Virus record (IMG/VR): IMGVR_UViG_3300024232_000001
Location: 1 to 59,383 of that record
Length of the DNA stretch: 59,383 bases
DNA from: a virus
Strand: one strand, 5' to 3'
The notes under the pieces were generated by a model that did no database searches, had not been told where the DNA came from, and worked only from the letters and a program-made list of their open reading frames with translations. The position numbers were made by a program, and so were the translations under genes. The first letter of the stretch is position 1. Each line of letters opens with the position of its first letter. Positions 9,597-45,105 of this stretch are shown piece by piece.

Positions 9597-9600
9597 GGTG

Positions 9601-11388: not shown

Positions 11389-11638
11389 TAGTTCTCCCCA
11401 ATCTCGCCTCTAGCTCTCCTGTCGTCGGGCGCGTCGCCTCCAGCACCTTGATGCGATCCTCCAGCCGATCATCGTCGCGGCGCATCTGGGCTTCTACCGC
11501 GTCAATCCGGTTGGATACCGACTCCTTGTATTCCTCGTGCTGGCGAACCGTGAGGGAACTATCCAGTGCCCGCGAGAGCGCCGCCCACCCGGCTACAGCC
11601 ACCGCGCCAACCGCGGCGATGGTCGTCCACCAGTCCAC
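11381..11638 (-). CDS. N-terminal TM plus coiled-coil protein (85 aa), lysis-associated
   Basis: WWTTIAAVGAVAVAGWAAL then a charged helix. Confidence 0.55.
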   Translation of the reverse strand: MDWWTTIAAVGAVAVAGWAALSRALDSSLTVRQHEEYKESVSNRIDAVEAQMRRDDDRLEDRIKVLEATRPTTGELEARLGRTNG

Positions 11639-11642
11639 GGCA

Positions 11643-12053
11643 CTAGGATAACCCTAGCTTGTGCGAAAATATAGCGTACAACGCGCCTACGAGGGCCACG
11701 ACGATCGCGGCCAGCGCAGAGATCGACATCAGCATCATCTGCTTGCCGAGCGCCGTCACACGGCCATGCAGGGCGTCGGCCTGTTTGTTCATTGCCCCGC
11801 GCAACCCGTCAATCGCGTCCTGATTTTCGCAGTGCCGATTTTCGTTGATAGTGCGACCTTCGCGGAGCATCGCCTCAACGCGCTGGTTATGCTCAATACA
11901 GTTCTGTTGGTGGCTGCGCCCCTCTGTGCGGGCCTCAACAGCTATGTCACGAGTCTCACGCACCTCGCGTTGCAACTCCCGGTAGGCTCCCCCGGTGAAA
12001 ATCATCAGGGAATTACCGTTTGTAGCACACGGGGCGAGATGCATGTGTGACAA
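11643..12053 (-). CDS. C-terminally anchored membrane protein (about 130 aa); start uncertain (12053 TTG, 12044 ATG)
   Basis: ORF track; C-terminal MMLMSISALAAIVVALVGALYAIF. Confidence 0.5.
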   Translation of the reverse strand: MSHMHLAPCATNGNSLMIFTGGAYRELQREVRETRDIAVEARTEGRSHQQNCIEHNQRVEAMLREGRTINENRHCENQDAIDGLRGAMNKQADALHGRVTALGKQMMLMSISALAAIVVALVGALYAIFSHKLGLS

Positions 12054-25990: not shown

Positions 25991-26320
25991 TCACCCGATA
26001 ATCAGAAGATTGAAGGTGCAATCCGTCTCTGCCGTACTCAGATGCGTCAGCACCGCTTGTCCACTTTTCTGTGAACTCGCATACAAACTCCCGGCAATCG
26101 CCGCCGCGTTGTGGCTCGTCGGGCAGAACGCCAGTGCCGAATAGAAGCCGATGCGAGCGTCGATGATCGTGGTCGTGGTCGCACCTGTCGCAAGCGTGAT
26201 CGGCAGGACCGTATTCAACCGCCCCGCCAGTATGTTGTTCACGACGGTCGCGACCCGCTTCACCCATTGCGGGACATCGCTGCCAAACAGCGGCGCGGGG
26301 ATATAGCCGGGATTTGCCAT
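25991..26320 (-). CDS. hypothetical protein (109 aa)
   Basis: ATG 26320 shares the TAATG junction with the upstream stop. Confidence 0.55.
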   Translation of the reverse strand: MANPGYIPAPLFGSDVPQWVKRVATVVNNILAGRLNTVLPITLATGATTTTIIDARIGFYSALAFCPTSHNAAAIAGSLYASSQKSGQAVLTHLSTAETDCTFNLLIIG

Positions 26321-27849
26321 TACCGAACCGTCCCCTGCGGCACGGCGTCGAGTTCGATGCCCGCGATATGGGTCCAGGTGTCCCCAAGAACGGTCGTGGT
26401 TGAAGCGCGGAGATAGCGTCCCGATGTGCGAACCGGACAATTCCCAAGACCGTTCAAGGCAACCGCTGCCGTGCTCGTCACCGTGTCTTGGATGCGCTCA
26501 CGATGGCCAATCGACACAGACGGCGTGCCGCCATCGACCAAAGGTCGCGTATTCCTGATGAGCGCGCGCCGCCCCGGAAACGGCTGCATCTCGCTGGTAT
26601 CGATCTGCGCGGCCATATTCGAGCCGGTGAAGTAGTTCAGCTTGTGGCTGTTATCGAACAAGCCGTACTGGAGCGCGCCGCCCTGCCAAATCGGGCTGTC
26701 GAGTGAGGCCGGTAGCGTATTCAGCGTGAAGCCAAGGACGGTAAAAAGTTGATCGAGCGTGTAGCCAATTCCGAGCATCCGGCACAGCGTCTCACTGGTG
26801 ATCTCGCACAGAGACCATTTGGCGAGGTCAATGTGATAACTCAACAGACGGTTCGGCACGCCACCAACCGAACCTTGACCGGGATAGACCCACGAGACGA
26901 TCTTGCGCACAGGGTCAGTCGCGCCAACCATGCGCAGGACATTGCCCGGATCGAGGTCAGTCAGAACCGTTCGGTCAACCTTGTTGAAGCCGATATTCGT
27001 TGCGGTAGAACCATCGAACCCGACAAACCCATCGTCTGTGAAGTAGTAGACCGAGCCACCAAAGATCGTCGGGCTTTCGGGAGATGGCGTGCCGCGGAGT
27101 CCCTGCGCCGGCAGGATCGAGAAAACTTCCGGCGGACCCGCATACATGATGTTTTTGACACCGTAGCGCTGAATTACGATCGCATCTGCCGATACTAGAC
27201 CGGATCGGAGCGCCTGGACCGCACCATCGCTACCTAGAAGATCAACTGCGCCAGATTGCACCTGCGCCGCCGTCGTGCCGCCCGGCGTCGGCCAACTCGT
27301 CGCGTCACCTGCGCCTGACCACCAAAGCCGCTGCTCCTTCGCACCGTTGGAGCCGTCTACGGTATTGCCGAGCATGACAAAGGCGTTCTTGACGACGGCG
27401 ATGTGCTTGGCCTTCGGCGCATTAGTCGATAGTGCCGAAAAGTTCGTGTCGCTGATCAGGTTGAATGTCTGAACCGCATCCGTGTAATTCGTCGCGATGC
27501 AGGAACCATTGAAATACTCGAACTCCCACCAGCCGTCCGAGCCAAGCGTATATGCGCCGCCCGATGTACGCGAGACATCTGCCCAACTGTTGCTGCCGGA
27601 AACCAGACGGTAGAGTTTGGTCGCATCCCCTGCGACGAGCGTGACCGCTAGGCTGCTGTCCACGAAAGCCGCCGCGCCTTGGCACCGCGCATTGAGCGCG
27701 CCCGAGTACGGCATTGGCGTCTTCACCGCGCCATAGCTGGTAGTCGTCAGTGGAACGACATTAGTGATAGTCGCAGACCCGCTGGCGGGGTAGTCCGGGG
27801 CGTCCGGCAACCACTCGTCTATCGGCAGGATGATCGGAGGCGTCGGCAT
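26320..27849 (-). CDS. tail (nozzle / tubular-B-like) protein (509 aa)
   Basis: In-frame ATG 27849 just after the upstream stop; position downstream of the adaptor-like gene. Confidence 0.6.
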   Translation of the reverse strand: MPTPPIILPIDEWLPDAPDYPASGSATITNVVPLTTTSYGAVKTPMPYSGALNARCQGAAAFVDSSLAVTLVAGDATKLYRLVSGSNSWADVSRTSGGAYTLGSDGWWEFEYFNGSCIATNYTDAVQTFNLISDTNFSALSTNAPKAKHIAVVKNAFVMLGNTVDGSNGAKEQRLWWSGAGDATSWPTPGGTTAAQVQSGAVDLLGSDGAVQALRSGLVSADAIVIQRYGVKNIMYAGPPEVFSILPAQGLRGTPSPESPTIFGGSVYYFTDDGFVGFDGSTATNIGFNKVDRTVLTDLDPGNVLRMVGATDPVRKIVSWVYPGQGSVGGVPNRLLSYHIDLAKWSLCEITSETLCRMLGIGYTLDQLFTVLGFTLNTLPASLDSPIWQGGALQYGLFDNSHKLNYFTGSNMAAQIDTSEMQPFPGRRALIRNTRPLVDGGTPSVSIGHRERIQDTVTSTAAVALNGLGNCPVRTSGRYLRASTTTVLGDTWTHIAGIELDAVPQGTVR

Positions 27850-27853
27850 GGCA

Positions 27854-28603
27854 TCACACCAAATGAGGAAGCAGCGCGGCAAGAGCCGCTGCGAGCGCAA
27901 GGCTAAAATATGTGGGCCTGATGCGCCCCTTAGCAGTCCGCCGCCCCGTCTCAGCATTGAGCGCCATCAGATAGCCGCGCGACTGTGGCAACGATGGATC
28001 GCCGTAAATCGCAATCTTGCATTCTGTCGCGAGATCAGGATCGTGCAGCACCTCCTGAGCCAGTATGAGTTTCGCCGTCGAACGGATCAGATCGAATGCG
28101 TCCTCTGTCCAGTAGTTCGCATCATCCGCGCTCTGGAGGGACGCCCCCCGAGCGACACCCGAGATGGTAATCGGATACGCGCCATCCGGGATGGGATAGA
28201 ACCGCAGTGTCTCGGCAAAATAGGCATAGTCGGTCGGATTGGCCGTCGTCTGAGGATTGACCGATATGTCCTCCACGTATTCCCAAGTCCGCGCCCGTAG
28301 GTAGTAGCGCTGATTGCTGATCTTAACCCTAAGTTTCTTGATCTCAGCCAGTGTGGCGAGCGGCGCATAGTCTGCGGACGTATAGAACTCTTGCCCAGCG
28401 ACGACGGTGAAGGCGTCCTGCGTGTAGACCTGATTGAAATAGAACTGCTCGCGCTCCCACATCGCCACCGCTGACTGGATCGCGTTCTGGATCGGCGACG
28501 CAGTGATACCGCTGTCAGAGAGCGGCGACAGCAAGTCCTGACGATCGCCGAGTTCATCGGCAATCTGCTTCTGCAAACCGATATAATCGGATGCAATGGT
28601 CAT
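27854..28603 (-). CDS. head-to-tail adaptor / tubular-A-like protein (249 aa)
   Basis: ORF track; called from position only. Confidence 0.55.
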   Translation of the reverse strand: MTIASDYIGLQKQIADELGDRQDLLSPLSDSGITASPIQNAIQSAVAMWEREQFYFNQVYTQDAFTVVAGQEFYTSADYAPLATLAEIKKLRVKISNQRYYLRARTWEYVEDISVNPQTTANPTDYAYFAETLRFYPIPDGAYPITISGVARGASLQSADDANYWTEDAFDLIRSTAKLILAQEVLHDPDLATECKIAIYGDPSLPQSRGYLMALNAETGRRTAKGRIRPTYFSLALAAALAALLPHLV

Positions 28604-28629: not shown

Positions 28630-28929
28630 TTACTCCTGATCGTAGATGCTCATGCCTTTCGGCGTGGCACTCGAACCCACCTGATCGGAATAGGCGTCAC
28701 GACTCATGCCGGTATAGCGTCGCGCCGCCGCACCGGGGCCATTCGCCGGCACATCCAGTTCGCCTGCGCCGGCACGTTCCCCTGCGCCAGTGCGCGCATT
28801 GCGGCTGAACGGCGAGCCGTGACTGTTCACGTTCGACATGCGGGCCGAATAGTTGTGCTCAGCCGCTTCGCTGCCGCCGCGGGGCGACGGGCCGGGACGC
28901 GGCTGGCGGGAACCACGATTCTTTGCCAT
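28630..28929 (-). CDS. disordered basic protein (99 aa)
   Basis: ORF track; AAGGAGTAACGAG before the ATG. Confidence 0.5.
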   Translation of the reverse strand: MAKNRGSRQPRPGPSPRGGSEAAEHNYSARMSNVNSHGSPFSRNARTGAGERAGAGELDVPANGPGAAARRYTGMSRDAYSDQVGSSATPKGMSIYDQE

Positions 28930-28956: not shown

Positions 28957-29556
28957 TCAGCCGCCGGACGGGGCGCGGCAAATGTACTGCACGACATTGC
29001 TACTCGTGCTGGTCTGCGTCAGCGTGATAGCAGCGGTGGAAGTCACATAGCTCTGGCTCGCAAGCGGGGTCGCGATCCAGGCAACGACGCAAAACGGCGT
29101 GCTCGTATAGGCGACATTGAACGTGATGACACAGCCGGTCGCGCTGGTGCCCATCGTGACGATGCCAGCTTCGTCCGTTCCCGTGATCGCTGGCGTGCCA
29201 CCACCACAGGAAGTCAGGGCCGGCGCAGTAGCCTGTGCCGTTGCAACATGAGTAGGCGTACCAGCTGAATTGCCGAAGGTGACAAGCGTTCCCTTCAGGT
29301 TGGTAGCGCCGCTCAGATTTGAAGTGCCGGTCGCCGAGAGTGTCGAAAACGCCCCAGTCGATGCCGTGTTGGCTCCGATTGGAGTTCCATCGATACAACC
29401 TCCCGTGATGCTGACCTGGTCCTTAGTCTGAACAGACAGGAGGGGTGCAGTCGATGGCAGAGCACTTGCGCCAGTCGCTACCGTGCAAGCCGCGAAAGCA
29501 CCGTGCCCAATGACCGCAAAACATGCCGCCACGAGAAGCGTGTTGAGATTCTTCAT
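28957..29556 (-). CDS. T/S/A/G-rich protein (199 aa) with signal-peptide-like N-terminus
   Basis: MKNLNTLLVAACFAVIGHGAFAAC; ATGA-coupled to the upstream oxygenase gene. Confidence 0.65.
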   Translation of the reverse strand: MKNLNTLLVAACFAVIGHGAFAACTVATGASALPSTAPLLSVQTKDQVSITGGCIDGTPIGANTASTGAFSTLSATGTSNLSGATNLKGTLVTFGNSAGTPTHVATAQATAPALTSCGGGTPAITGTDEAGIVTMGTSATGCVITFNVAYTSTPFCVVAWIATPLASQSYVTSTAAITLTQTSTSSNVVQYICRAPSGG

Positions 29557-30245
29557 TCGGCGGCATCCTCAATCGTCAGTTCCTGCTCGACAGGGGTCGC
29601 GAAAATGTTCAGCAACAGCGCGTTGCGGACCATGCCACATCCGCTCGCCAGAACGCCGTGGAAACTCTTGTCAGTGCGCGCGAACGCGAAACAGGTGTTC
29701 GGCATGAATGGCGCGGTCCACAGCGGCGAGAACCCGTCCATCTCCTTCAGCCAGGACAGGCCGTCATGCGAGAACTCAGGATCGCGATGTTGAAAGATTG
29801 TGGTCCCAAACTCCCTCATCCGATCGTCGCTCGGCAGGTAGAACAGGAACGACAGAAACTTGTTGGGCACGTCGGTATGCGGCGACAGATGATATTCGGG
29901 ATCGTCGCGCACCAGCCGGATATCAAAACCAACCTTCAGATCGATCGGACCGAACCGCTCATCGCGCACCATGCTGAACCTGTTATAGAGCGCTGCGACG
30001 TATTCGCCACTGCCCATCCAGGCGCATAGCTCAGCCCAAAAGCCGCCTAGCGCCACCGGCTCAAGCAAGCGGCGATGCGGATAGGCGCGCTCGCCATAGG
30101 CATCGTCGAGCGGCAGGTTCCGCAGCATCTCGGCATAGAAATCCGCTGGGAAGACGTTCCGGACGTACATGTGCCGATATGGCGCCTGAATCAGAGGCGC
30201 ACGCAACAACCGCATCAACGACTGTTCAGCGGCGGAAGATGACAT
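29553..30245 (-). CDS. 2OG-Fe(II)-oxygenase-like protein (230 aa)
   Basis: HTD (HxD) in YHLSPHTDVPNKF and distal KSFHGV; in-frame ATG 30245. Confidence 0.5.
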   Translation of the reverse strand: MSSSAAEQSLMRLLRAPLIQAPYRHMYVRNVFPADFYAEMLRNLPLDDAYGERAYPHRRLLEPVALGGFWAELCAWMGSGEYVAALYNRFSMVRDERFGPIDLKVGFDIRLVRDDPEYHLSPHTDVPNKFLSFLFYLPSDDRMREFGTTIFQHRDPEFSHDGLSWLKEMDGFSPLWTAPFMPNTCFAFARTDKSFHGVLASGCGMVRNALLLNIFATPVEQELTIEDAAE

Positions 30246-30957
30246 TGCCGATGCCCTTGAACGCGCCCTCCGTACGGCGTGCCTTGTCAGCCTGTGCGGC
30301 GTTCCAGCGAAAGCCCATGTCCTCCATACGACCGACAAGCGACTGATGATCGCCGCGCCCAGTATCGATCTCGATCAGAACGCTGCGGACCTTGGCGAGA
30401 CAGCCCATCGCGCCCGCGATCACGCGATGCTCCAAGCCATCCACATCGATCTTGACCACATCGGGTTGAGGGATCACCTCCTTTTCGACCAGCATGTCCA
30501 AGCGTACCGCGCAGGAGCCTTGAACAAAGCTGGGGCGCATTTCGGTGCCTTTGTACGTCACCGCATCGCCGTAGGTGTGGCACGATCCACCAGCCGCGAA
30601 GTTGCTGAGGAATAGAGGCCCGAAGCTGTTTTCATCCGACAGTGCGAACGGGAACGCCATCACGTCGGTTCGATTGATCAGCGCGTTCTGGCACAGCAGG
30701 GCAAAATTCTGACTCTCAGGCTCGAATGCGAACACCCGCGCCCCTGCCGTTTTCGCGGCCCAGATCGAGTACATCCCGACGTTGGCGCCGACATCCACGA
30801 ACACGTCGCCCGGATCGAGTTCAGCAAGCCATTCGATCGTATCGGGCTCCTTGGTGAACAGCGTCTGTACCCGCCATACGCAGGACTCGTTCGGCGTCGC
30901 ATAGAGAATGCGCCCCGTCGCGTGCTCAACCTTGGAGACGATGATTTCCTGCTTCAT
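30226..30957 (-). CDS. FkbM-family SAM-dependent methyltransferase
   Basis: VFVDVGANVGMYSIWAAK...ARVFAFEPESQNF. Confidence 0.8.
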   Translation of the reverse strand: MKQEIIVSKVEHATGRILYATPNESCVWRVQTLFTKEPDTIEWLAELDPGDVFVDVGANVGMYSIWAAKTAGARVFAFEPESQNFALLCQNALINRTDVMAFPFALSDENSFGPLFLSNFAAGGSCHTYGDAVTYKGTEMRPSFVQGSCAVRLDMLVEKEVIPQPDVVKIDVDGLEHRVIAGAMGCLAKVRSVLIEIDTGRGDHQSLVGRMEDMGFRWNAAQADKARRTEGAFKGIGNVIFRR

Positions 30958-31380
30958 AGCGGCGGCAATCCACGGCGACGTTTTTGGTAATTCTGCAAGC
31001 CTAAGCTTATTTTCGCTCGCGTCTCAGATGACCGTTTGCTCCCGCGATGGGCCGCCGCAATCTTCGCGATCGTTTCAGGTGCAAGCGGTCTTCCCATTTT
31101 AGCGATAGAAATCTTCCTTCTAGTTTCTTCGGATTTCGGCCTTCCAAGCGTAAGGAGTCGAATCCGCTCTAAATTTTCTGGGCTAGAAGCCCATTCAGAC
31201 CTCACCATTAGACAGCACGTCCTTTATCCAACGATGCCGAGGAATATAGACGCGCCCTCTCGTCACATCGTTGATGTGCGACCTAAGACGATAAGAAAGC
31301 GTGCCGGTAGTCTTGCCGACGTATTTCAGTTCGTCGGTTCTCGGATCGAGAAGACCGTATATTTGAACGAGATCGCTCAT
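30954..31380 (-). pseudogene. Degenerate GIY-YIG / NUMOD3 homing-endonuclease remnant split over two frames (31195..31380 and 30954..31208)
   Basis: IYGLLDPRTDELKYVGKT...RLRSH (GIY-YIG first half) stops at 31195; the other frame carries three NUMOD3-like SEETRRKIS / PETIAKIAAAHRG / SETRAKIS motifs; second half of the catalytic domain is missing. Confidence 0.6.
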
Positions 31381-32087
31381 GCCGCTGATTTATCCATCAT
31401 TTCTGCTACAGCGGCGGCGGAACGCTTAAGTGTCAAGCGATCGTAGACAGCAGAAGCGTGGACCGAATTGCCCATAAGTTCCTTCCATGGGACGGACGAG
31501 AATGCTTTTACTGCTTCAACCCTCCACTCCTCGCCAAACTCGCTGTCCTGGGTCTCTGGGAACGCGGGAATGCCCTGAGTGAAATGAACGAGTTTGGCAT
31601 CCGGACGGGGAGCATCATATCCGACCAGATGGTTCCACTCGGAAGGGAGTGCGCCAACCTGTTCGGGGTGGGCCCATTCCATTTTCAGAAGGCCACCGCC
31701 AGTTTTGACGTGTTCTGGCGTCAAGGTTTCGCATTTCTCGCAGTTAAACAGCATCACGCTGGCCCACTCGAAGGCCATGTCATTCTTGACGACCATGACA
31801 CTGTATTTTTTGTCAACGAGAGCGAACAATTCCGCGATATCTGCTCTCAGCATGATATCGATATCGAGAAAAAGCGCCCAATCCTTATACCCCATCAGAT
31901 GAGGGACCAGAAAGCGGCTGAAAGTGAACGGCGTCAGTCCAACACGGCGCAGAGGGAGCGTGGGCAGCACAAGCGGCGTGATGGAAACAGGCTTCGTCGC
32001 GCGCTCCAAGATCGAATGCGACAGCACATGGTACGAAACCGGTTGCCGATGGTCATATCCGATGAAAATGCGAAGCGTTTCAGTCAT
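31377..32087 (-). CDS. GT-A-type glycosyltransferase (GT8-like, DxD)
   Basis: RIFIGYD...ALFLDIDIMLRADIAELF; ATGA coupling at both ends. Confidence 0.6.
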   Translation of the reverse strand: MTETLRIFIGYDHRQPVSYHVLSHSILERATKPVSITPLVLPTLPLRRVGLTPFTFSRFLVPHLMGYKDWALFLDIDIMLRADIAELFALVDKKYSVMVVKNDMAFEWASVMLFNCEKCETLTPEHVKTGGGLLKMEWAHPEQVGALPSEWNHLVGYDAPRPDAKLVHFTQGIPAFPETQDSEFGEEWRVEAVKAFSSVPWKELMGNSVHASAVYDRLTLKRSAAAVAEMMDKSAA

Positions 32088-32599
32088 TTTGCTACCGCTG
32101 TGCATTGGAAAGTCGGACCGTAGTCGTGAAACTCGTGGAGCGTCCACCGATCCCAGATGCGCTCTAGCCACCACCGCGCCGGCTTAACGATCAGATGCGC
32201 ATTGCGGCCATCCGCGAGTGTCTTCATGGCTGGATGCGTACCAATCACCAGAAAGATGCCCTTCTGGGTCAGGAAGTGCAGATCATCCAGCACAGCTTCA
32301 AGGCATTCCGGCTCGATATGCTCCAGCACGTCTCCGCAGACCACGACATCGGCAGGCGCAGGGCGATCGGTCTTTCCGTCTACCGCAGGATCATACTCGA
32401 CGACCCGATAGGGCGCGCCGCAAGGGAAGGACGCCACCAATGTTCCCTTGCCAGCTCCATAATCAAGGATCGATTCAGCCCTCACGATATCGGCAAAGCT
32501 CAAAACGCCGGGTGCCCAGACCTTGCCGGAAGTGCCGAACGTTGGATTGCGACGGTGCAGCTCGCGGGTAAGCGCGATATATTCCTCGCTGATCAGCAT
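32084..32599 (-). CDS. class I SAM-dependent methyltransferase (171 aa)
   Basis: ILDYGAGKGTLV (motif I) and VVVCGDVLEHI. Confidence 0.75.
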   Translation of the reverse strand: MLISEEYIALTRELHRRNPTFGTSGKVWAPGVLSFADIVRAESILDYGAGKGTLVASFPCGAPYRVVEYDPAVDGKTDRPAPADVVVCGDVLEHIEPECLEAVLDDLHFLTQKGIFLVIGTHPAMKTLADGRNAHLIVKPARWWLERIWDRWTLHEFHDYGPTFQCTAVAK

Positions 32600-33999
32600 G
32601 CCGCGTCCGCGTACTCGCGGCCCCAATGCTTCAGTTTCTCGGCGATCTCCTCAATCACGCCAGACCACTCGCCATCCTTGTGCTGGCGAAACAAGCGAGC
32701 ACTTCCATACCACGGCAGCGTCGTTCCTTTAAGTTGGAACCGCCATGACGGCCTACTCGGGACAAGGACCCAGTTGGGAACGCCCAAAGCGCTAGCCAGA
32801 TCGTGCGCCGTGGTTGTAACCGTAATCAGTAGATCGAGGCTGGAGACGAACGACGCCGTACGGTCGTAGTCGAAGCACTCGACCCAGCCGGGATAGTGCG
32901 CGATGTGAATGCCGGTCTTTTCCTCAAGCTCGCACACCTCGCGGGCGGCATTGTCGGTGTACTGGAGCGAGAACCACTCGGCATCAGGGCGCGAGCGTAG
33001 GATCGGTACCAGCGCATCGATCGGCAGACTGCGCAGATCGGTACGAGTGCGTTTCACGCCGCCCGTCCAGGACAGACCGATGCGCAAGCGATGACCGCCG
33101 CCATCAGCGAACGGCGCGGCCTTCAGATAGGCGCGACCATCGCCCCACTCTGCGTCCGTATTGCGGAAGAACCGCGGCAGATCGGCAACACAGATCGAGG
33201 CGTCCGCGCCGCAGTCGTCCAGCCAATCGACTTGGCTGATGTGCTTGCGCGTCCCATACACCTCAATTTCCGGGAAGGACCGCTGGAATAGCGCCGGGAG
33301 CCGCGGATGACAGTCGAAGATCACTTTCTTGGAGATTCGGATAATGTCCGGCAGGCAATTGGCGTTGAAAATCTCGTCGCCGATGCCCTGGTCGCCGTAC
33401 ACGATCACCGTCTTTCCCGGCGAACCATCCCAATCGGGCACATCGATGTAGCTGCGTTTTTTGCGGTCCCCGTTGGCATAGGTCGCCATCCAACCTTCCC
33501 AGCCCTCGCGCCACAGCCCCAGTTCAAGGCACGCCATGCCGCGCTGCGCCTTGGTCTGATAGTTATTCGGGTCGAGCGCGAGAGCCTTGTCGCACCATTC
33601 GAGAGCCGGGGTGGGATCGCCTTCATTGATGTGAAGGCTGGCAAGATTCGTCATGATCTTGCAGCGTTCTTTGGGCAGCGTCTCGCTCTTCAGCGCCGCC
33701 AGCCAAGCGATCTGGGCAAGATCATTCTGACGTTCGTGCTTGTGCGCGCCACCCAGATTTAACAACGCTTCCGGGAAAGGTTTGCCCTCTCTCGTTTCCC
33801 GAGAATCGATCGCCGCCGAGGTGATAACCGCACCGACCCCGTTCATGCCGCGCTCTATGAACAGACCGCCAAGCAGGAACAGGGCTTCGGTGTGGTAGAA
33901 ATCGCCGTTGAGGATTTCCGCCAACTTGTCCATAGCCCCCGTGCCATCGCCTTTGACGATGAGCGCGCGGGCCTCTTCAATTGGGGAAAGCGACGCCAA
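32593..33999 (-). CDS. TPR-repeat protein fused to a GT-B (GT9/heptosyltransferase-like) glycosyltransferase domain
   Basis: N-terminal TPR-like helices; VIVYGDQGIGDEIFNANCLPDII and C-terminal GT9-like region; TTG start after TAAGGAGA. Confidence 0.75.
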   Translation of the reverse strand: MASLSPIEEARALIVKGDGTGAMDKLAEILNGDFYHTEALFLLGGLFIERGMNGVGAVITSAAIDSRETREGKPFPEALLNLGGAHKHERQNDLAQIAWLAALKSETLPKERCKIMTNLASLHINEGDPTPALEWCDKALALDPNNYQTKAQRGMACLELGLWREGWEGWMATYANGDRKKRSYIDVPDWDGSPGKTVIVYGDQGIGDEIFNANCLPDIIRISKKVIFDCHPRLPALFQRSFPEIEVYGTRKHISQVDWLDDCGADASICVADLPRFFRNTDAEWGDGRAYLKAAPFADGGGHRLRIGLSWTGGVKRTRTDLRSLPIDALVPILRSRPDAEWFSLQYTDNAAREVCELEEKTGIHIAHYPGWVECFDYDRTASFVSSLDLLITVTTTAHDLASALGVPNWVLVPSRPSWRFQLKGTTLPWYGSARLFRQHKDGEWSGVIEEIAEKLKHWGREYADAAC

Positions 34000-34010
34000 C
34001 GGCGATCTCC

Positions 34011-34454
34011 TTACGTCCCGTCAGTGCGGTAGACGAGGTTCCGCAGATTGATAATCAGGGACGTGGTGGCCGTGCCGCTCTCGACCTTGGCGCAGAGGAT
34101 CGCGTAGCGATTCGGATCGAGGTCGGACACGGAGATCGTCGGCGGGAGGCCAAGCACGTTGCCGCGGTTGACCGTCGAGATCGCCCCGGATGCGATGAGG
34201 CACGACAGGTTCGCCCCGCCGCCGGCAGCGATGCCGCTGGCGAAGCCGAAGCTGACGCCCTGCGCCGTGCCGCCCGTGGTGTGGTCTTCCTCGATGCTCA
34301 CGATCGTTGCCCCGTTCGGAACCTTCGCCAGGAAGATCACATCGCCGTTGCTCGATGCCGTCGAACCCATGTTGATCGAGCACGAAATCGAGTTGTTCCC
34401 GATCTGCACCGCCTTGGGCGTATTCAGGAAGAGGGTGCTGGTATAGGTTGCCAT
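34011..34454 (-). CDS. hypothetical head-associated protein (147 aa)
   Basis: ORF track; TAAGGGAGA directly after the capsid gene stop. Confidence 0.65.
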   Translation of the reverse strand: MATYTSTLFLNTPKAVQIGNNSISCSINMGSTASSNGDVIFLAKVPNGATIVSIEEDHTTGGTAQGVSFGFASGIAAGGGANLSCLIASGAISTVNRGNVLGLPPTISVSDLDPNRYAILCAKVESGTATTSLIINLRNLVYRTDGT

Positions 34455-34467
34455 CGTCTGCTCTCCC

Positions 34468-35562
34468 TTAGTGCGATGCAGCGTAGCAGGAGGTAACGAT
34501 GGTGGCGAAGTCGGTAGAGTTGAACACCGCCTTCTTCAGCCCCCAGATCATCCCCGCGCTCACGCCAAGTTCGTTTTCGTAGTCGAACAACTCCTCAACC
34601 CAGGTGAACCGCTCAGGCCCGTTGTCGCGACCATAGGCACACATCGCAGCCTGCGCGCCGGCCAGCACCGCTCGCCGGACGTTGGCAACCTGCGAAGTCG
34701 AGGTGTTCGTGTCCACACCCGGCGTCACGCGAACATCCGAGTGCAGCACGGTGCCGTTGTAGACGCCGAGACTACCGTCAAAGATCGGGTTGTCGGCGAT
34801 CTCGCCGCCGGTCATCGCCGCCTTCTGGATGTCGAGGAACTGACCCGTGGTGGTCGAGGTCCGCATGTCGGTGACTTGGTACGGGTGCATGAAGTAGACC
34901 CAATACGGCTTGCCACCCACCATCACCGGGCGAATAGCCGGCGAAAGCGTCCGCGCCCGCTCAACCGCCTTGTCGATCAAGGTCAGCGTGAACGTCGAGG
35001 TCGTGGTGATCGAGGTATCGCCCGTCGAGCCGTCCGACCGCAGGATGTGGTTGCTGTCGGGAGCCGTCACGGCCTGCAACCCGGTGTAACGGCTATCCGC
35101 GCCACCGATGATCGCGCCATTCACACCTAACGTCGGGGAGAACGCGCAAATCTGGTTGAAGAAGCCGAGATCGATACGGTCAGTCCACCAATCGCGCAGG
35201 CCGCTAAGCGCCTCGTCCCGGATCGAGAACGGGATACGCTGCTGCGACATGCGGCCAGCCGAGCGAACCGCGTGGCGAAGCTGATTGATCACGATCGAAT
35301 CGCTGTAAGTCGTCAGCGACTCTTCGTTGCCCTCCAAGGTGCCGTCGCCGATGACGCCAGCCCCGGAAAGCTGCATGCGCAGACCGTAGGTGATCTTGTC
35401 GCCCGGCCCCTTGCTGGTCTCGTCCTTGACCTGGATCAAAGACGCCGAAGTCGCGCCCATGAACTTGCTGGCCCAGGTATTTTTGAGTACCTCAACTGCA
35501 AGTCGTTTCGACCACAACTTGACCGCGAGTGCGTCATTTGTGCCATAACTTGTGGTTGCCAT
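34468..35562 (-). CDS. major capsid protein (N4-gp56-like family)
   Basis: LAVKLWSKRLAVEVLKNTWASKFMG...GDKITYGLRMQLSGAGVIGDGTLEGNEE matches the family N-terminus as recalled; follows the scaffold gene. Confidence 0.85.
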   Translation of the reverse strand: MATTSYGTNDALAVKLWSKRLAVEVLKNTWASKFMGATSASLIQVKDETSKGPGDKITYGLRMQLSGAGVIGDGTLEGNEESLTTYSDSIVINQLRHAVRSAGRMSQQRIPFSIRDEALSGLRDWWTDRIDLGFFNQICAFSPTLGVNGAIIGGADSRYTGLQAVTAPDSNHILRSDGSTGDTSITTTSTFTLTLIDKAVERARTLSPAIRPVMVGGKPYWVYFMHPYQVTDMRTSTTTGQFLDIQKAAMTGGEIADNPIFDGSLGVYNGTVLHSDVRVTPGVDTNTSTSQVANVRRAVLAGAQAAMCAYGRDNGPERFTWVEELFDYENELGVSAGMIWGLKKAVFNSTDFATIVTSCYAASH

Positions 35563-35792: not shown

Positions 35793-36764
35793 TCACGCGC
35801 CAAGCAAAGCGCGACCTTCCTCCGTCTCCATCATTTTGGAAAATTCGGAGTCGGGCATTTCGAGCAAACGTTGCGCGGTCATCGGCGCAGGACCGGAACC
35901 GCGCGCTCCACTGAGGCCGCGAGCCTGCTGCTGCCCGGCAGCGACCTGAGCCAAACGGTCGCCCGGAGTTTGCTGCTGCGTACCATTCCCGGCTCCATTG
36001 CCATTGGGAGTCGGCAGCGTGTAGCCACGGCCCTTCGCTACCTGATAGACAAGCGCGGCAGGATCACGTCCGTTCTGCATCGCCATCGCGGCCATGCCGA
36101 GCGCTTCCTGAGTAATCAGAGCCTGTCGCTGCACCGGATCGGTCCAGCCTTGCGCCTCAAGCTCGTTGTCCCGCTGCTTGCGCAGGAACGTCACGGCCTG
36201 ATCGTAATCGGGATTGTCTGCCCGGAACGCATGCTCGCGGACCATCGCGTGTTGCTGAAGCATCTGGATTTGCGCTGCCTGCTGCTGTTGCTGCTGGGTC
36301 AGTTGCCCCTGATTTTGCAGATTGGCGAGCTGCTGGCGAACCTGCTCGATCGAACCCGTGATGTGTCCAACCGGATCAGTATTCAGGTCGGGAATCTGCG
36401 GCGTCTGATCCTGTGCAGGCTGCTGCTGCGGGCCAAGACGCTGAAGGATGATGTTGGTGCGCTCTTCCAGCACTTGCCGAGCGCGGCGCTCTTCGGCAAC
36501 CGTCGCCTCAAGAGCCTTCCGGCGCTCGCGCTCTTCATGGAGCGCGCCAAGCGGAACCATACGGTTCGGCTTTTGCCCGGCAGGCGCATCAGGATCGTCT
36601 GCGGGAGCGTCATCGGCAGCAATCGTCGTATCTGCTTGCGGTGCTGGCGCAGGCGTATCATCAGGCGCGGCATCCTCCGCCCGCATCTGATCCATCAGAG
36701 CCTGATCTTCGGTAGACAGATCGCTCTGCACGCCGTCCGTCGCTGCCCGTGCCGTCCTAGCCAT
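35793..36764 (-). CDS. scaffolding protein (323 aa)
   Basis: Acidic/Q-rich helical protein between the portal and capsid genes. Confidence 0.6.
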   Translation of the reverse strand: MARTARAATDGVQSDLSTEDQALMDQMRAEDAAPDDTPAPAPQADTTIAADDAPADDPDAPAGQKPNRMVPLGALHEERERRKALEATVAEERRARQVLEERTNIILQRLGPQQQPAQDQTPQIPDLNTDPVGHITGSIEQVRQQLANLQNQGQLTQQQQQQAAQIQMLQQHAMVREHAFRADNPDYDQAVTFLRKQRDNELEAQGWTDPVQRQALITQEALGMAAMAMQNGRDPAALVYQVAKGRGYTLPTPNGNGAGNGTQQQTPGDRLAQVAAGQQQARGLSGARGSGPAPMTAQRLLEMPDSEFSKMMETEEGRALLGA

Positions 36765-36794: not shown

Positions 36795-38978
36795 CTAAGC
36801 CGCGGCCTGCTGAGGTTGGTTCTGCCCGTTCACGATCCTGTCAAGCATATCCAGCACGGCGAGCATGTCGTTCGTCTGCGTGCTGGCGTGATCGATGCCG
36901 ACGCGAGCCAGATTGGCAAGCGCCCCAGCCCGTAGCGACTCGATCTGCGCCCGTGCCTTCTCGCCATCGATCGCCTGACTATGGGCCTGCTGCTGAGCCT
37001 GCATCTGCGCGCGCTGCAACTCGGTCTGCATCGACTGCTGCTGCACCTGATTGTCGAAGTTCTGCGCCTGAATCTCCGCCGCGTGCTGCTGCGCGCTGTT
37101 CTGCGTCTGCGCGTCGAGATTGCGTGCCCGCGCCGCCTCCGACTGCGCTCGCGCCATATCGAGTTGCGCCCTGGCCTGCAATGCCGGATTGCCCTGACCG
37201 CCGGGCGGCTGCGACTGCATGATCTGGCTGATCGTCTCGGTCAACGTCGTCGGTAGCGGCGAGTATTTCAGGAACTCGACGTAAATCTGCGGCGGAATCT
37301 GGATGCGCGTTAGCATCGGCATCATCTGGACAAGAACCGCCCAGGTCTTCTCCTTCAGGTTCGGCGAAGTCGGCGTATCGTCAACCACCACGTCGTATTC
37401 GACCACGCCCGGCTGATGGAGCAGCGGGATGTACTGCGCCTGATCCTGCCCCTCGATCTTGATGAGGCGACCGTCGCTGAGGAAATTGACGATATACCAG
37501 AGCATCAAGCGGCCCTGCTCCTTGCGGTAGCGCCGCAGGGAGTCGAAAAGACCTGCCAGCACCGTCATGCCGGCCTGCTTGCGCATGTGCTCAAGGATGC
37601 CCGGCTGCTCCTTCTCCACCATGCCGAGAAGTTCAAGGTTGATGCCCGTGCAGTCCCGCAGCGACTGAATGGCGAACTGAAGTAGGTCCGGGAGCGTCTG
37701 CGGCACCTGATTCTGCGGGCGCGGCATGATCTTGCCGCCTGAAATCGCCCCCGGCTGCGCCCAGACGATGGCGCTCGGATCGGCCCAGTTGTCCTCCGCA
37801 TCATCCGCGTCCTCGAAAGCCGTGCGCTCGGCGATGATGCCGCCTTTTGCGCCGCTGTTGAGGATATGCAGCGATTGCGACAGCCACTTGTTCGCCCATT
37901 TCTGCGGGTCGATCATCGCCCGGACGATGCCGTACCACGTTCCCTTATTGCGGTCGCGATCTCCCGTGATGAATTTCCAGGTGAAGCCACCTTTGGCTGG
38001 CCCTTCCCACTGATCGAGCACCTTCTTGCCAAGAAGGGCACGCCAGTATTTGCGGGTACGCTGCGGCACGGCCTGCGGCGGCTGACGCCCCATCGCCTGA
38101 AGCCGCTCGATCAGCAGTCGGTACGTCGCATCGTTCAGCGAGGTCTCATCGCCCGTGAACGGATCAATCAGCCGCCATGTCTTCTCGTATTCCCACCACT
38201 GGACCTCGACGACGCGGAACAGAATGGCGGTCTTATCCACGCGCCCGGATTGATCGTTGCGGTAGAACGGAGCCTGCTGGGCATTGTGCGGGTCTGAGGT
38301 CAGCGAGGCCGTGTCTTCGGCCCATCCGGCATGCACCTCGTCCAATGCGATGCCGGGGAACATCTCCTCGACTTCACTGAGCGGCAAATCCTTGACCCGG
38401 AAGGCAAAGCGCGAGTCGCCGTAGTTCTTCCTGGTCGATTGCGGGTCAAGGTAGAACTCCAGCGGATCGGCACGGACGATGTTCAGTGCGCCATCCGGGT
38501 CTTCATCGTATTTGAGGATCGTGTCAGTTACGCCGACGCCGCAGACGGCGCAGTCGGCGAACGCCTGCGACTCCTCGTCCTCGGCGTCGCACTCGTCACG
38601 TATCCACTTCGCCGCGCCGGTCAGGACATCGTTGACCGCGGCATTCCCGAGCTGCCTCGGGATGAACCGCACTTCCTGGCGGTTCGCGACTTCCAGCCCG
38701 GTCACGATCTTGACCATCGGCTGCACGCGGTTGAACGTGATGATGGGGCGCAACTGCTCCCTCAGCGCCGCCGTGTCCTCCGCATTCCACTGCGTGCCCG
38801 CCACGAAGTCGAAACACTCGCGCGCCTCGATCCGCCATGTATGGCTGTGATCCCGAGCCTGACGATACCATTGCTGTAGGCGTTCAAATACGTCGTCAGC
38901 GGTGGCCGGCCCAGCCTGCCCAACGGGAGGAAGAATCCGATAATCGGTATCAGCCGGAAGTTGGTTGGCATCCGACAT
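36795..38978 (-). CDS. portal protein (727 aa) with Q-rich C-terminal helical extension
   Basis: [30 protein letters not shown] portal N-terminal motif; size; position. Confidence 0.85.
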
Positions 38979-42436: not shown

Positions 42437-42602
42437 CGCCCGTTTCCTTCTGTTCATCAGCAAGGAATGCGTAGAAGTCGTTCGCATACTTGAGCGCCGC
42501 TCCTCCGCTGCCGTTTGACGCTTTGACCGCAAGATCAAGCGCCGAGAGCCGCATCATTCGCTCTTGCTCCGTCATTTCAGCTAATCTATTCGGCGCGGCC
42601 AT
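42423..42602 (-). CDS. hypothetical protein (59 aa)
   Basis: In-frame ATG 42602 at a TGATG junction. Confidence 0.45.
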   Translation of the reverse strand: MAAPNRLAEMTEQERMMRLSALDLAVKASNGSGGAALKYANDFYAFLADEQKETGDGAD

Positions 42603-42877
42603 CAGCCACTCCTCGCAATGTCTCGGGTTGCGGAAAGATAATCGGGTTCTGAGCGCGGCGGGATGCGATTGAAGACATGCGCCGGGCGGTCGCCCTTGCC
42701 GGCGACCCAGATTCCTTCCGGCCATTGCGTGCCATCGAAGAACCGCTCAGCCTCTTCGCGCTCTGCTTCCCATGCCTTATTGGCGGCAATCGCGCGCTCG
42801 TTATAGCCGCGGAACAGTTCGGCCAACTTCTCCTCGGTCAGCCGAGTCCCCGTAGGAATCTTTCCGATCTCGATCAT
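42602..42877 (-). CDS. portal N-terminus-like fragment (91 aa)
   Basis: WEAEREEAERFFDGTQWPEG...DRPAHVFNRIPP parallels the portal [20 protein letters not shown]...[12 protein letters not shown]; ATG after GAGGCGAAGGC. Confidence 0.5.
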   Translation of the reverse strand: MIEIGKIPTGTRLTEEKLAELFRGYNERAIAANKAWEAEREEAERFFDGTQWPEGIWVAGKGDRPAHVFNRIPPRSEPDYLSATRDIARSG

Positions 42878-42920
42878 GCCTTCGCCTCGAACAGCGTCCC
42901 ACCGTACCCGCACGGTCCAG

Positions 42921-43076
42921 TCAGCCGCGCCTCCTGACGTTAGGGTAGCGCACATCGGCGCTTCCCGCCAAGAAGTTCGGGACATCTTCCGCGCTGCGTA
43001 CATGATGGCACTCGCCCAGATACGAGGTCAGCAGGTTGCACCACTTGCAGTCCTGGCACGCGACGATCTCAGCCAT
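42921..43076 (-). CDS. Cys-rich peptide (51 aa)
   Basis: Hand-translated MAEIVACQDCKWCNLLTSYLGECHH...; ATGGCTGA overlap with the upstream gene. Confidence 0.4.
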   Translation of the reverse strand: MAEIVACQDCKWCNLLTSYLGECHHVRSAEDVPNFLAGSADVRYPNVRRRG

Positions 43077-43275
43077 CACGCCTCGGACTCAGTAGCGGGT
43101 TCTTTTTTCGCCGTTGGTCGGATGTGATCTTATCCTCATGGATTACAAAACCACGCAGCATCACTACACGTCCAAACCCTCCCGGAAGCTCCGCGCCATG
43201 CGGCAGACCAGTGATCGGATCGCGCCAGTTGCGCTCGATCTCCCGCCAGTCCTCTTCCGTCATGCGGCCAGCCAC
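43069..43275 (-). CDS. hypothetical protein (68 aa)
   Basis: ORF track; overlaps the terL 3' end by 16 nt. Confidence 0.5.
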   Translation of the reverse strand: MAGRMTEEDWREIERNWRDPITGLPHGAELPGGFGRVVMLRGFVIHEDKITSDQRRKKNPLLSPRRDG

Positions 43276-44699
43276 GTCCGGTCCCCCCTCCGCCTGCGAC
43301 GCCTGCGGCTACCCTCGCCGCCATAGCGGCTATTCTCATTGTGCCGGATATAAGGGCGAGCCATAACGGCGTACCTCAGCTCATCGACCGCGTGGTCCTC
43401 GCCCGAACTTAGAACATCTTCGGGTCTGCGCTCGTCATGCTGCACCGCCGGCAGCGTCCTGATCATAGCGTCGCACGTATCGAAGAAATACAGCATCGGC
43501 TCCTCTTCCCCCAAGAGCCGATCCCGCACCTGATCCCACCCCGCGATCCGCGAATTGTCCGCCTCGATGAAATCCACCCCGCACACCGCCATCCGCTCCG
43601 CAATGCTCGGCCCCCCATCCCACTTCCAGCACGCCGGGTCCGCCACCCGAAACGAAATCGACTGCTTCCCCTCCCGCGACTTGATCCCCTCCGCAACCTG
43701 CTCCGCCGTCAGCTTCAGCCCAACGTTCGGCGCACTCGCCCCATACCACTCCTGATACCGGATCAGCGCCCCCGCCGGGAACCACTTCCCATCCTTCAGC
43801 CGCGTCCCGTCGCTCACCGCATACAGCCCATAACTGAACGGGCGCGCACTCCCCCAATCAAAACTTCCGAACCGCATCCACCACCCCGGGATCGCAAACG
43901 GCTCTATCACATGCCGCTTCCGGTCAAACGCCTCGAAAAATGCCCCCGCCACAACATCCCAATCCCCGTCCTCCATCGCGCGCACGAGAGCCTCGTTGCC
44001 CAATCCTCGGAGCTTCGCCCGATACGACGGATCATCCTCCTGCATGCTCGGATTGTCCTCAAGCTTGGCCGGGATGAACTGCCGCACCATCCCGCCTTCA
44101 CCATCCGACATCGGACGCAACTCCATCGGCCTAACATTGTCGATGAACGTCGCCTTGACCCAGAGGTGGCCGATATTCCCCGGATTGCTCGCGCACAATA
44201 TCCGCGGAAACTTGCCACGGTACTGCTCAGGCACCGTGATCCCAACCATCCGCGTCCGACCCCGCAGGAACCGGTACACAACCTCCGAGAAGTGCGTCAG
44301 CTCGTCGATCAGCAGCACATGTATCTCCGCCCCCTGGTACTTGTACCGATCCCCATCATCCTTACAGTGGCACAGATATATCCGGCTCCCGTTCCAGAAC
44401 CGTATCTCTTCCTCAACAATCTTGATAAACCCAGCCTGCTCCCATCCCGCCAGCAGCGCCCGAAAACCCTTCGGTCCCTCCATGTGGTTCTTAATCAAAT
44501 CCGGGAAAAGACGCCGAAACACATAGACCTGAAGGCCTGCAATCTGCGTACACCACAGTATAGCCGCAGCCCGCATAAGAAAAGACTTCCCACCCCCAGC
44601 CGCGCCGCCATATAAAATCTCAGTCGCGTCCGACAATAACGCCGCACCCTGCCGAGGATGCAGGTTCAACGGGATGTTGACTACTTGCTGTGTACTCAC
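43260..44699 (-). CDS. terL: terminase large subunit
   Basis: LYGGAAGGGKS (Walker A), VLLIDELTHF (Walker B), C-terminal nuclease-like region; GTG start. Confidence 0.9.
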   Translation of the reverse strand: MSTQQVVNIPLNLHPRQGAALLSDATEILYGGAAGGGKSFLMRAAAILWCTQIAGLQVYVFRRLFPDLIKNHMEGPKGFRALLAGWEQAGFIKIVEEEIRFWNGSRIYLCHCKDDGDRYKYQGAEIHVLLIDELTHFSEVVYRFLRGRTRMVGITVPEQYRGKFPRILCASNPGNIGHLWVKATFIDNVRPMELRPMSDGEGGMVRQFIPAKLEDNPSMQEDDPSYRAKLRGLGNEALVRAMEDGDWDVVAGAFFEAFDRKRHVIEPFAIPGWWMRFGSFDWGSARPFSYGLYAVSDGTRLKDGKWFPAGALIRYQEWYGASAPNVGLKLTAEQVAEGIKSREGKQSISFRVADPACWKWDGGPSIAERMAVCGVDFIEADNSRIAGWDQVRDRLLGEEEPMLYFFDTCDAMIRTLPAVQHDERRPEDVLSSGEDHAVDELRYAVMARPYIRHNENSRYGGEGSRRRRRRRGDRTWLAA

Positions 44700-44910
44700 G
44701 GAATGGACGCAAATACTTGGGAATGGTGGAAATTATAAAATTTCGCTATTTTTTCAGAGGGAAAGCGGAACGTCCCTAGCCATCCCTTTGAAACAGGCCG
44801 CCCGTCAAGGAGGGCACCGGGGGGTCCGATTTGGCTCGGGATCGAGCCGCCGCGCATAAGATCGGTCTTTAATTGCAATGGCTTAGCCGAGGCGAACCCT
44901 CCTGGCATGG

Positions 44911-45105
44911 CTAGGCCCATCGTGCCGCACCGCGCTCGCTGGCTGCAGCTCTATGCCAGAGCCTGCACCAATCAACGCGGCGAACCATGCCATCTACCAG
45001 CGCGCAGGCAGACGGCGCACGGAAGTGATCGCACTGGCCGCAGTGATGCGGACCTTGTGCCGGGTGCTCGAACGCGACGGAGGCTTTGGTGCTCTTGTCA
45101 GCCAT
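44911..45105 (-). CDS. small Cys-containing protein (64 aa)
   Basis: ORF track; ATGGCTGA overlap with the upstream ORF. Confidence 0.4.
   Translation of the reverse strand: MADKSTKASVAFEHPAQGPHHCGQCDHFRAPSACALVDGMVRRVDWCRLWHRAAASERGAARWA

Follow-up and report, generated by a model that had tools for sequence, protein, structure and literature searches.

A conserved glycosyltransferase and methyltransferase cassette between the capsid and adaptor genes of an environmental phage is a candidate system for virion protein glycosylation

We examined IMG/VR virus record IMGVR_UViG_3300024232_000001, and the window referred to below is the whole stretch of 59,383 nucleotides (nt) that was analyzed. 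An island of genes at positions 28957-34454 of this window sits on the minus strand between the gene encoding the major capsid protein (MCP) and the gene encoding a head-to-tail adaptor. The genes of the island encode a protein of 147 amino acids (aa) that we refer to as p147, a glycosyltransferase fused to a tetratricopeptide repeat (TPR) domain (TPR-GT), a class I S-adenosylmethionine (SAM) methyltransferase (MT23), a glycosyltransferase of the GT-A type, an FkbM methyltransferase, an Fe(II)/2-oxoglutarate oxygenase (2OG), and a protein rich in Thr, Ser, Ala, and Gly (the T/S-rich protein), together with the remnant of a homing endonuclease. There is good support for this cassette as a conserved module of genes, while the acceptor of its enzymes is a candidate proposed from sequence. 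On balance, we lean towards the interpretation that the island encodes a late-expressed pathway for protein O-glycosylation and glycan tailoring that would act in the cytoplasm on surface-exposed capsid proteins.

The lead enzyme of the cassette is TPR-GT (32593-33999, minus strand, 468 aa). Its N-terminal TPR domain (33472-33999, minus strand, aa 1-176), which is presumed to be the acceptor-recognition module, matched TPR_2 (8e-7) and TPR_1, and it is followed by a GT-B catalytic domain of the GT9-like type (32593-33468, minus strand, aa 178-468). Sequence searches of Pfam, NCBIfam, and the PDB detected TPR repeats only, with designed or consensus TPR proteins returned from the PDB and nothing on the catalytic half. 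An AlphaFold2 model built on 42 homologues was confident, with a predicted local distance difference test score (pLDDT) of 93.1 and a predicted template modeling score of 0.88, and it consists of ten TPR-type helices (aa 6-176) followed by two Rossmann-like lobes in which strands and helices alternate (aa 197-460). The best Foldseek matches to this model in the PDB were Arabidopsis SPINDLY, bacterial and human OGT, and XcOGT (E 5e-11 to 1e-7, probability 1.0), with template modeling (TM) scores of only about 0.35 and high root-mean-square deviations. A preliminary description of this DNA, made from the letters and their open reading frames (ORFs), had recognized here the fusion of a TPR and a GT-B domain, which is the architecture of protein O-glycosyltransferases, and both the confident model and the presence of SPINDLY and OGT as the best matches among solved structures uphold this.

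The assignment of the catalytic domain to a GT9-like type, also made in that description, holds only at the level of the protein family: PF01075 (GT9) was matched by 12 of 22 divergent TPR-GT homologues (E up to 1, best E 3.4e-6), whereas the window protein had no PF01075 match. Precomputed PF01075 matches are also present in many of the cellular relatives. When a profile of the catalytic domain was compared with the PDB, WaaF was the sole match at a non-significant E of 0.38, with its GD motif and a C-terminal D...H.A.AL motif aligned, and TibC was not retrieved by this search at E up to 10. Viral models annotated as GT9, RfaF, or Aah/TibC matched the glycosyltransferase domain structurally, with target TM-scores of 0.71-0.79. 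A QG.GD motif, the GD of which aligns with that of WaaF, is invariant in the 22 homologues (28-53% identity), suggesting that TPR-GT is likely to be active as an enzyme. The GT41 profile PF13844 had no match in the window protein or in any of the 22 homologues, and TPR-GT is therefore not a GT41 member; only one distant cellular match (P0198) carries PF13844. The family of this glycosyltransferase domain is very large and counts 33,503 representatives when E is limited to 1e-3. Among its best matches there are many giant proteins, with 1,000-3,100 aa and two to seven copies of the domain, and these make up an uncharacterized class of multi-GT9-like proteins.

There are several known systems with which TPR-GT can be compared. 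In GT41 enzymes such as OGT, SPINDLY, and XcOGT, a TPR superhelix likewise precedes a GT-B domain, and these enzymes act on Ser/Thr residues of folded proteins; the window enzyme differs from them in its GT9-like catalytic domain, the missing PF13844 match, and the low TM-scores given above. With the GT9 enzymes WaaC and WaaF it shares a GT-B fold of two Rossmann domains and an N-terminal Gly-Asp motif. Canonical GT9 enzymes, in contrast, are without TPR repeats and have lipid A-core acceptors, and for the window enzyme we infer that its fusion to TPR repeats speaks against a lipid as the acceptor. TibC and AAH are GT9-like protein heptosyltransferases that O-glycosylate proteins in the cytoplasm. 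In FlmG, the flagellin O-glycosyltransferase of Caulobacter and Brevundimonas, flagellin is bound through the TPR domain, and it is the GT-B domain that determines donor specificity (PMC7591256; bioRxiv 10.1101/2022.03.25.485807). TPR-GT resembles FlmG, which we compared by its description only, in being a soluble protein with an N-terminal TPR domain followed by a C-terminal GT-B domain, and the cellular relatives of TPR-GT sit in loci with flagellin, FliD, and FliS genes. Unlike FlmG, however, the window gene lies in a phage head module rather than a flagellar locus, and its product has 468 aa compared to 596 aa. No nonulosonic-acid genes were found among the window ORFs scanned, and the 120 best matches to a flagellin-adjacent relative were all called “tetratricopeptide repeat protein”, with none named FlmG.

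The remaining enzymes of the cassette are also encoded on the minus strand. MT23 (32084-32599, 171 aa) matched PF13489 Methyltransf_23 at 1.3e-7 to 1.5e-7 and phrog_24759 at 1e-21, in agreement with its initial designation as a class I SAM methyltransferase. The GT-A glycosyltransferase (31377-32087, 236 aa) matched phrog_28018 at 4e-28. It had been recognized by a DxD motif, which is present as DID, and its similarity to PF01501 Glyco_transf_8 (E 3.8e-5, 23.8 bits) falls just below the Pfam cut-off of 24.3, as do the GT8 matches of two divergent homologues, so that we refer to it as GT8-like. The accessory FkbM methyltransferase (30226-30957) was correctly named as well, with matches above the curated cut-offs of both TIGR01444 (1.4e-25, 90.4 bits against 37.7) and PF05050 (7.6e-13, 49.4 bits against 22.7). 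The product of the neighboring accessory gene (29553-30245) had been described as resembling a 2OG-Fe(II) oxygenase. It had no match in Pfam, NCBIfam, or PHROGs, and its 40 homologues had no match to a Pfam model either. A motif of H123-x-D125...H196...R207 is invariant in 31 sequences, and an AlphaFold2 model (pLDDT 93.2) has a double-stranded beta-helix fold, for which the best Foldseek matches were PolD and PasI (E 2e-10), oxygenases that act on high-carbon sugar nucleosides, followed by the prolyl hydroxylases Tpa1, OGFOD1, PHD2, and P4H and the sugar epimerase SnoN. The invariant motif, with its facial triad and 2OG-binding Arg, and the fold matches together establish this ORF as a real Fe(II)/2OG oxygenase, whose substrate, judging from the model, could be a sugar or a protein. 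No membrane segments were found in any of the five island enzymes.

Between the GT-A and FkbM genes lies what had been termed a decayed GIY-YIG remnant, and it is indeed a decayed GIY-YIG/NUMOD3 homing endonuclease (30954-31380, minus strand) that is spread over two frames (31195-31380 and 30954-31208). It consists of a 61-aa N-terminal GIY-YIG piece (E 0.014) and an 84-aa NUMOD3 piece (4.9e-9), and translation in three frames revealed a frameshift, with the second half of the catalytic domain gone. All of the ORFs listed for the island in the preliminary description were found on the minus strand at the coordinates used here, free of internal stops, and an independent public gene call on the contig gave identical products of 147, 468, 171, and 236 aa. 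By reading the junctions, we also recovered the ATGA and ATGCTGA overlaps by which the genes had been said to be joined: TPR-GT and MT23 overlap by 7 nt at ATGCTGA, while ATGA overlaps occur at the MT23/GT-A, GT-A/GIY-YIG fragment, NUMOD3 fragment/FkbM, and 2OG/T/S-rich junctions. The FkbM and 2OG genes overlap by 20 nt, and the gaps between the MCP and p147 genes (13 nt) and between the p147 and TPR-GT genes (11 nt) each contain a GGAG-type ribosome-binding site. A consensus scan for internal promoters (sigma-70 consensus sites only) and terminators in the island found no excess over the shuffled expectation. The composition of the island equals that of the rest of the phage, except for lower GC contents in the GT-A gene (0.536) and the homing endonuclease remnant (0.50-0.51).

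To gain insight into the conservation of the cassette, we examined the genomic context of its relatives. At least 285 close homologues of TPR-GT were found, along with 471 matches in IMG/VR, and we evaluated synteny in the 80 best IMG/VR loci, which were seeded with TPR-GT and have 34-65% identity to it. The MCP gene was found within 3 kb upstream on the same strand in 40 of 46 evaluable loci, and the cassette is flanked by MCP and adaptor/nozzle genes in 20 of 24. Among 59 loci that could be evaluated downstream of TPR-GT, 38 had MT23, 46 had GT-A, 47 had one or the other, and 37 had both. These counts identify TPR-GT, MT23, and GT-A as the conserved core, whereas FkbM, 2OG, and the T/S-rich protein come in addition in this phage; elsewhere, 2OG and FkbM genes sit near the portal gene. 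In a protein search of GenBank phages, a single full-length TPR-GT homologue was found, in MW202512.1, where the layout is alike and comprises capsid, small head proteins, “tetratricopeptide repeat”, endonuclease, FkbM, and “galT-like” genes. The cassette is accessory in close capsid relatives: when loci were seeded with the capsid protein (at least 56% identity, 66 evaluable loci), 13 of them (approximately 20%) encoded TPR-GT, while in the other 53 the capsid gene is followed directly by the adaptor gene. The cultured Rhizobium phage RHph_Y1_10 is without the cassette. Given the 471 IMG/VR relatives and the share of close capsid relatives that carry the lead enzyme, the earlier view that such a system would be unusual for alphaproteobacterial podovirus-like phages did not hold.

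Relatives of TPR-GT are also found in cellular genomes, with 506 matches, of which we examined the best 80. Six of these loci are phage-like and encode the same capsid family, and 74 have no Phage_capsid_3-type markers. In four more loci, an unrelated SU10_MCP gene lies 0.85-1.6 kb upstream of TPR-GT and an SU10 adaptor gene lies downstream, which on sequence grounds is an independent second association of the cassette with capsid genes. Flagellin, FliD, or FliS genes occur within 6 kb in 16 of the 74 loci (from Planctomycetota, Acidobacteriota, Alphaproteobacteria, and Gammaproteobacteria), compared to fewer than one of 74 expected by chance according to our own estimate, and in one locus (L042) the genes for TPR-GT, FliS, FliD, and two flagellins are consecutive. 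Type IV pilin genes occur within 10 kb in nine betaproteobacterial loci. These flagellar and pilin loci often also contain GT-A and MT23 homologues and homologues of the overlapping FkbM-2OG genes, and in betaproteobacterial loci the overlapping FkbM-2OG pair is kept in the same order beside TPR-GT homologues. Thus, the whole enzyme set of the window recurs as a unit beside genes encoding the subunits of large protein polymers. In addition, two proteins (P0208, 1142 aa; P0226, 1157 aa) combine TPR, Glyco_transf_9 (PF01075), and FkbM (PF05050) domains in a single chain, which is domain-fusion evidence that the glycosyltransferase and the FkbM methyltransferase work together.

Two further observations were made on these cellular loci. 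Betaproteobacterial loci from metagenome-assembled genomes (L013, L015, L028, L024, L011, and others) contain several TPR-GT paralogues, a divergent overlapping FkbM-2OG pair, and GT-A and MT23 homologues, and in the nine betaproteobacterial loci with type IV pilin genes these lie 1.4-10 kb from the TPR-GT clusters. This gene content hints at a cytoplasmic, TPR-GT-based pilin glycosylation system in Betaproteobacteria, of which we found no description in the literature searched. In a 525-kb scaffold of the cultured Reyranella sp. CPCC 100927 (L006; NZ_VOHA01000004.1, 366771-388129), capsid, cement protein, TPR-GT, MT23, and GT-A genes occur together in what is probably a prophage, making this an experimentally accessible relative.

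The candidate acceptors of the pathway are encoded within the island or immediately next to it. The MCP (34468-35562, minus strand) matched PF13252 Phage_capsid_3 at 6.6e-79 and phrog_334 at 2e-89, and 19% of its residues are Ser or Thr. The ORF for p147 (34011-34454, minus strand) had previously been called head-associated. As a single sequence it had no match in Pfam, NCBIfam, or PHROGs, while a profile of its family matched 7eel_H, “Cement (decoration) proteins”, in the PDB over nearly its full length (E 0.0018), with weaker matches to the virion or cement proteins 8h89_J and 7dou_4. Of the 26 members of the p147 family, 12 also matched phrog_8455, which is annotated as “virion structural protein”. 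From this profile evidence p147 is a capsid cement protein, in line with the earlier call. A W-type subfamily of p147 is present in all 63 of the 63 loci in which the cassette lies between the MCP and adaptor genes, whereas cassette-free loci have an N-type cement form (25) or no detectable homologue (29), even though their capsid proteins are equally similar. Because adjacent genes are inherited together, this covariation between cement subtype and cassette is suggestive and not decisive. The Ser/Thr content of the cement protein is slightly higher in the presence of the cassette (0.209 compared to 0.185, p 0.009, uncorrected for phylogeny).

The T/S-rich protein (28957-29556, minus strand, 199 aa) is a rare accessory whose composition, with 28% Ser and Thr, is as first described. 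It had no match in Pfam, NCBIfam, or PHROGs, and its N-terminus contains a Sec-type hydrophobic segment (Kyte-Doolittle maximum 1.98 at aa 8-26). Over residues 48-92 it shares 63% identity with a putative tail fibre from Roseobacter phage CRP-1. Homologues were detected only in L092, where the gene lies just upstream of TPR-GT, and in L208. In both the window protein and the L092 homologue (9365-9979) the signal-like segment ends in A-A-C or S-A-C, and such N-termini suggest a protein that is exported and possibly lipidated. L092, a related 64-kb phage contig, also encodes two tandem paralogous ORFs of 108 aa between the TPR-GT and MT23 genes (11393-12047), which are rich in Ala, Gly, and Thr, probably beta-rich, and may be extra capsid-surface proteins.

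Considering these results together, we propose a pathway in which the cassette and the head genes would be transcribed together and TPR-GT would use its TPR domain to bind the acceptor, with p147, encoded immediately upstream, as the leading candidate and the MCP as the alternative. The GT9-like GT-B domain would then transfer the first sugar to Ser/Thr residues, the GT8-like GT-A enzyme would lengthen the glycan, and the Methyltransf_23 enzyme would methylate it. In this phage, FkbM and 2OG may provide extra tailoring, plausibly hydroxylation followed by O-methylation, and the outcome would be a methylated or oxidized glycan coat on the head. By analogy, the predicted cytoplasmic location of all of the enzymes would fit both the site of capsid assembly and the mode of action of FlmG and OGT. 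The proposal that the phage decorates its own virion proteins, made in the preliminary description, is therefore supported in part: the TPR/GT-B architecture, the synteny with capsid genes in two lineages, and the flagellin and pilin company of relatives are in its favor, while the glycan, the acceptor, and the timing are what we infer.

There are also several points that weigh against virion glycosylation. The glycan, its acceptor, and its late expression are predictions from the gene content, and the likeness to FlmG is one of architecture, taken from its description. The MCP-adaptor junction is a hot spot for cargo, where homing endonucleases are found in this phage and also in its relatives, and 53 of the 66 close capsid relatives lack the cassette; position by itself is therefore weak evidence. 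The capsid proteins of cassette-bearing and cassette-free relatives showed no difference in Ser/Thr content or in length (p 0.27), the correlation with p147 subtype is not phylogenetically independent since linked genes are inherited together, and approximately 45 of the 74 cellular relatives have no informative neighbor. GT9 and GT8 are classic families of lipopolysaccharide (LPS) core synthesis. Moreover, the phage is temperate, as it encodes an integrase, and the secreted T/S-rich protein could be the acceptor, in analogy to exported adhesins that are glycosylated in the cytoplasm. These last two features leave room for host-directed or exported targets, and it is conceivable, if rather improbable in our view, that the cassette glycosylates flagellin, type IV pilin, the phage's own secreted T/S-rich protein, or the LPS core, altering the surface of the lysogen for purposes such as superinfection exclusion through receptor masking. 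The integrase and the related cassette in a prophage-sized stretch of the Reyranella scaffold would fit with this, as would the membership of the two glycosyltransferases in LPS-core families, the flagellin, FliD, FliS, and pilin genes that adjoin non-phage relatives of TPR-GT, the Sec-type N-terminus of the T/S-rich protein and its retention within the L092 cassette, and the fact that pilus glycosylation is cited in the literature as a phage defence. However, the cassette lies approximately 20 kb from the integrase gene, within the head-adaptor operon, with overlapping stop and start codons and no predicted promoter of its own, and its exact position is retained across two capsid lineages and at identities as low as 34%, which is unexpected for a lysogenic-conversion moron. 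The T/S-rich protein is found in only two other loci and so cannot be a conserved acceptor, and LPS heptosyltransferases are, to our knowledge, without TPR domains.

Both of the other explanations that we considered are less likely than modification of the host. One is that tail fibres, tailspikes, or the nozzle serve as the acceptors and that the position of the enzyme genes near the head genes is incidental. The 45-aa segment that the T/S-rich protein shares with a putative tail fibre, the 18% Ser and Thr of the nozzle protein, and the glycosylation of the tail tube as well as the capsid in mycobacteriophages would be compatible with such targets, but the gene is consistently found beside the MCP and cement genes rather than the fibre genes (at 12.5-17.8 kb), and it is the cement-protein subtype that varies together with the cassette, so that we consider tail acceptors unlikely. 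Even less probable, and in our opinion very much so, is that an insertion hot spot has gathered separate morons and a dead homing endonuclease whose enzymes do not form one pathway. Homing endonucleases are indeed found at this junction in the phage and its relatives, the GT-A gene and the GIY-YIG/NUMOD3 remnant are lower in GC than the rest, and FkbM and 2OG occur elsewhere, near the portal, in other phages. Nevertheless, TPR-GT is joined by both MT23 and GT-A at 37 of 59 viral loci, and the three recur together in bacterial flagellar and pilin loci, FkbM and 2OG travel as an overlapping pair beside TPR-GT homologues in bacteria, and fusions of TPR, GT9, and FkbM domains exist. A role in DNA hypermodification was also considered and rejected, because protein acceptors are indicated by the fusion to a TPR domain, by the location within the head module, and by the flagellin and pilin genes found beside relatives. 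The window ORFs scanned included no hydroxymethylase-type genes.

Returning to glycosylation of the virion, we know of no phages other than mycobacteriophages for which the modification of their own virions by phage-encoded enzymes has so far been established. In these phages, phage-encoded glycosyltransferases modify the capsid and tail-tube subunits at their C-termini (Freeman et al. 2023, as cited in PMC12619734 and PMC11256854). The window is similar to the cases presented there in that its glycosyltransferase genes lie inside the virion structural operon, and it differs in that the mycobacteriophages are siphoviruses of actinobacterial hosts, whereas the window system is a prediction from genes; a TPR-GT9 fusion, a link to a cement protein, and a tailoring set of methyltransferases and an oxygenase are not described in the texts consulted. 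Neither this cassette nor glycosylation of the capsid in phages with Gram-negative hosts is described in the literature that we searched. By analogy, the system would resemble FlmG, OGT, and SPINDLY in the selection of acceptors by a TPR domain, and mycobacteriophage virion glycosylation in its function. We further suggest, with somewhat less confidence than for the island itself, that the almost uncharacterized TPR-GT9-like family of 33,503 representatives may be specialized for glycosylating the subunits of large polymers such as flagellin, type IV pilin, and capsids, and that podophages of at least two capsid lineages may have captured a complete version with three to five enzymes, with which they would build a methylated or oxidized glycan coat on the cement protein or the capsid. 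If this is correct, virion glycosylation would be widespread among environmental phages of Gram-negative bacteria rather than a peculiarity of mycobacteriophages, and the shielding of virions by glycans would be a strategy in common use, considering the 471 IMG/VR relatives and the presence of the lead enzyme in around one fifth of close capsid relatives. It would bear on virion stability, adsorption, recognition by immune and defence systems, and the reading of cryo-EM densities. It would also provide a function for a huge family of “TPR repeat proteins” and point to a cytoplasmic route of pilin and flagellin glycosylation in Betaproteobacteria, Planctomycetes, and Acidobacteria.

The phage itself has a podovirus-type morphogenesis operon on the minus strand of the window. 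Positions 1-127 are an exact repeat of positions 59257-59383, and as this 127-nt terminal repeat looks like an assembly overlap, the window is a complete circular genome of 59,256 bp. In addition to the MCP, the minus strand encodes the large terminase (43260-44699), the portal (36795-38978, phrog_156), a scaffold-like protein (35793-36764), and a nozzle-like virion protein (about 26320-27846). The downstream boundary of the island is formed by the adaptor gene (27854-28603, minus strand), which matched phrog_19385 at 1e-19 and whose product is 57% identical to that of a gene in locus L001 bearing PF24175 SU10_adaptor. The tyrosine-integrase-like gene lies on the plus strand (55363-56346, phrog_216 at 1e-24), and a RecT-like recombination gene (3668-4894) and an exonuclease gene (2813-3664) are also present. 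The portal is shared with five GenBank phages only, at 25-42% identity, namely Rhizobium, Paracoccus, Microcystis, and Acidovorax phages and one uncultured phage. A nucleotide search against 50,697 phage records returned three weak matches to the capsid gene and nothing more, indicating that there is no close cultured relative. Based on the Rhizobium and Paracoccus phage relatives and the Reyranella prophage, an alphaproteobacterial host is plausible.

Some smaller features of the window can also be noted. A basic 99-aa ORF with a GGAG ribosome-binding site (28630-28929, minus strand) precedes the adaptor gene; its product is probably disordered, and homologues occur at the same position in L086, L089, and L090. 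This ORF, the integrase gene, and the Sec-type N-terminus of the T/S-rich protein were absent from the preliminary description. Between the terminase and portal genes there is an ORF of 133 aa (42602-43003, minus strand), residues 56-116 of which are similar to the N-terminus of the portal that this phage encodes (aa 26-87), at 29% identity and a pairwise E of 8e-4. It also matches phrog_156 at E 7e-4, and from these similarities it may be an N-terminal fragment or a paralogue of the portal. Lastly, GC skew is strongly negative (-0.31, -0.18) at 43001-45000, in the terminase region, well beyond the range found elsewhere in the genome.

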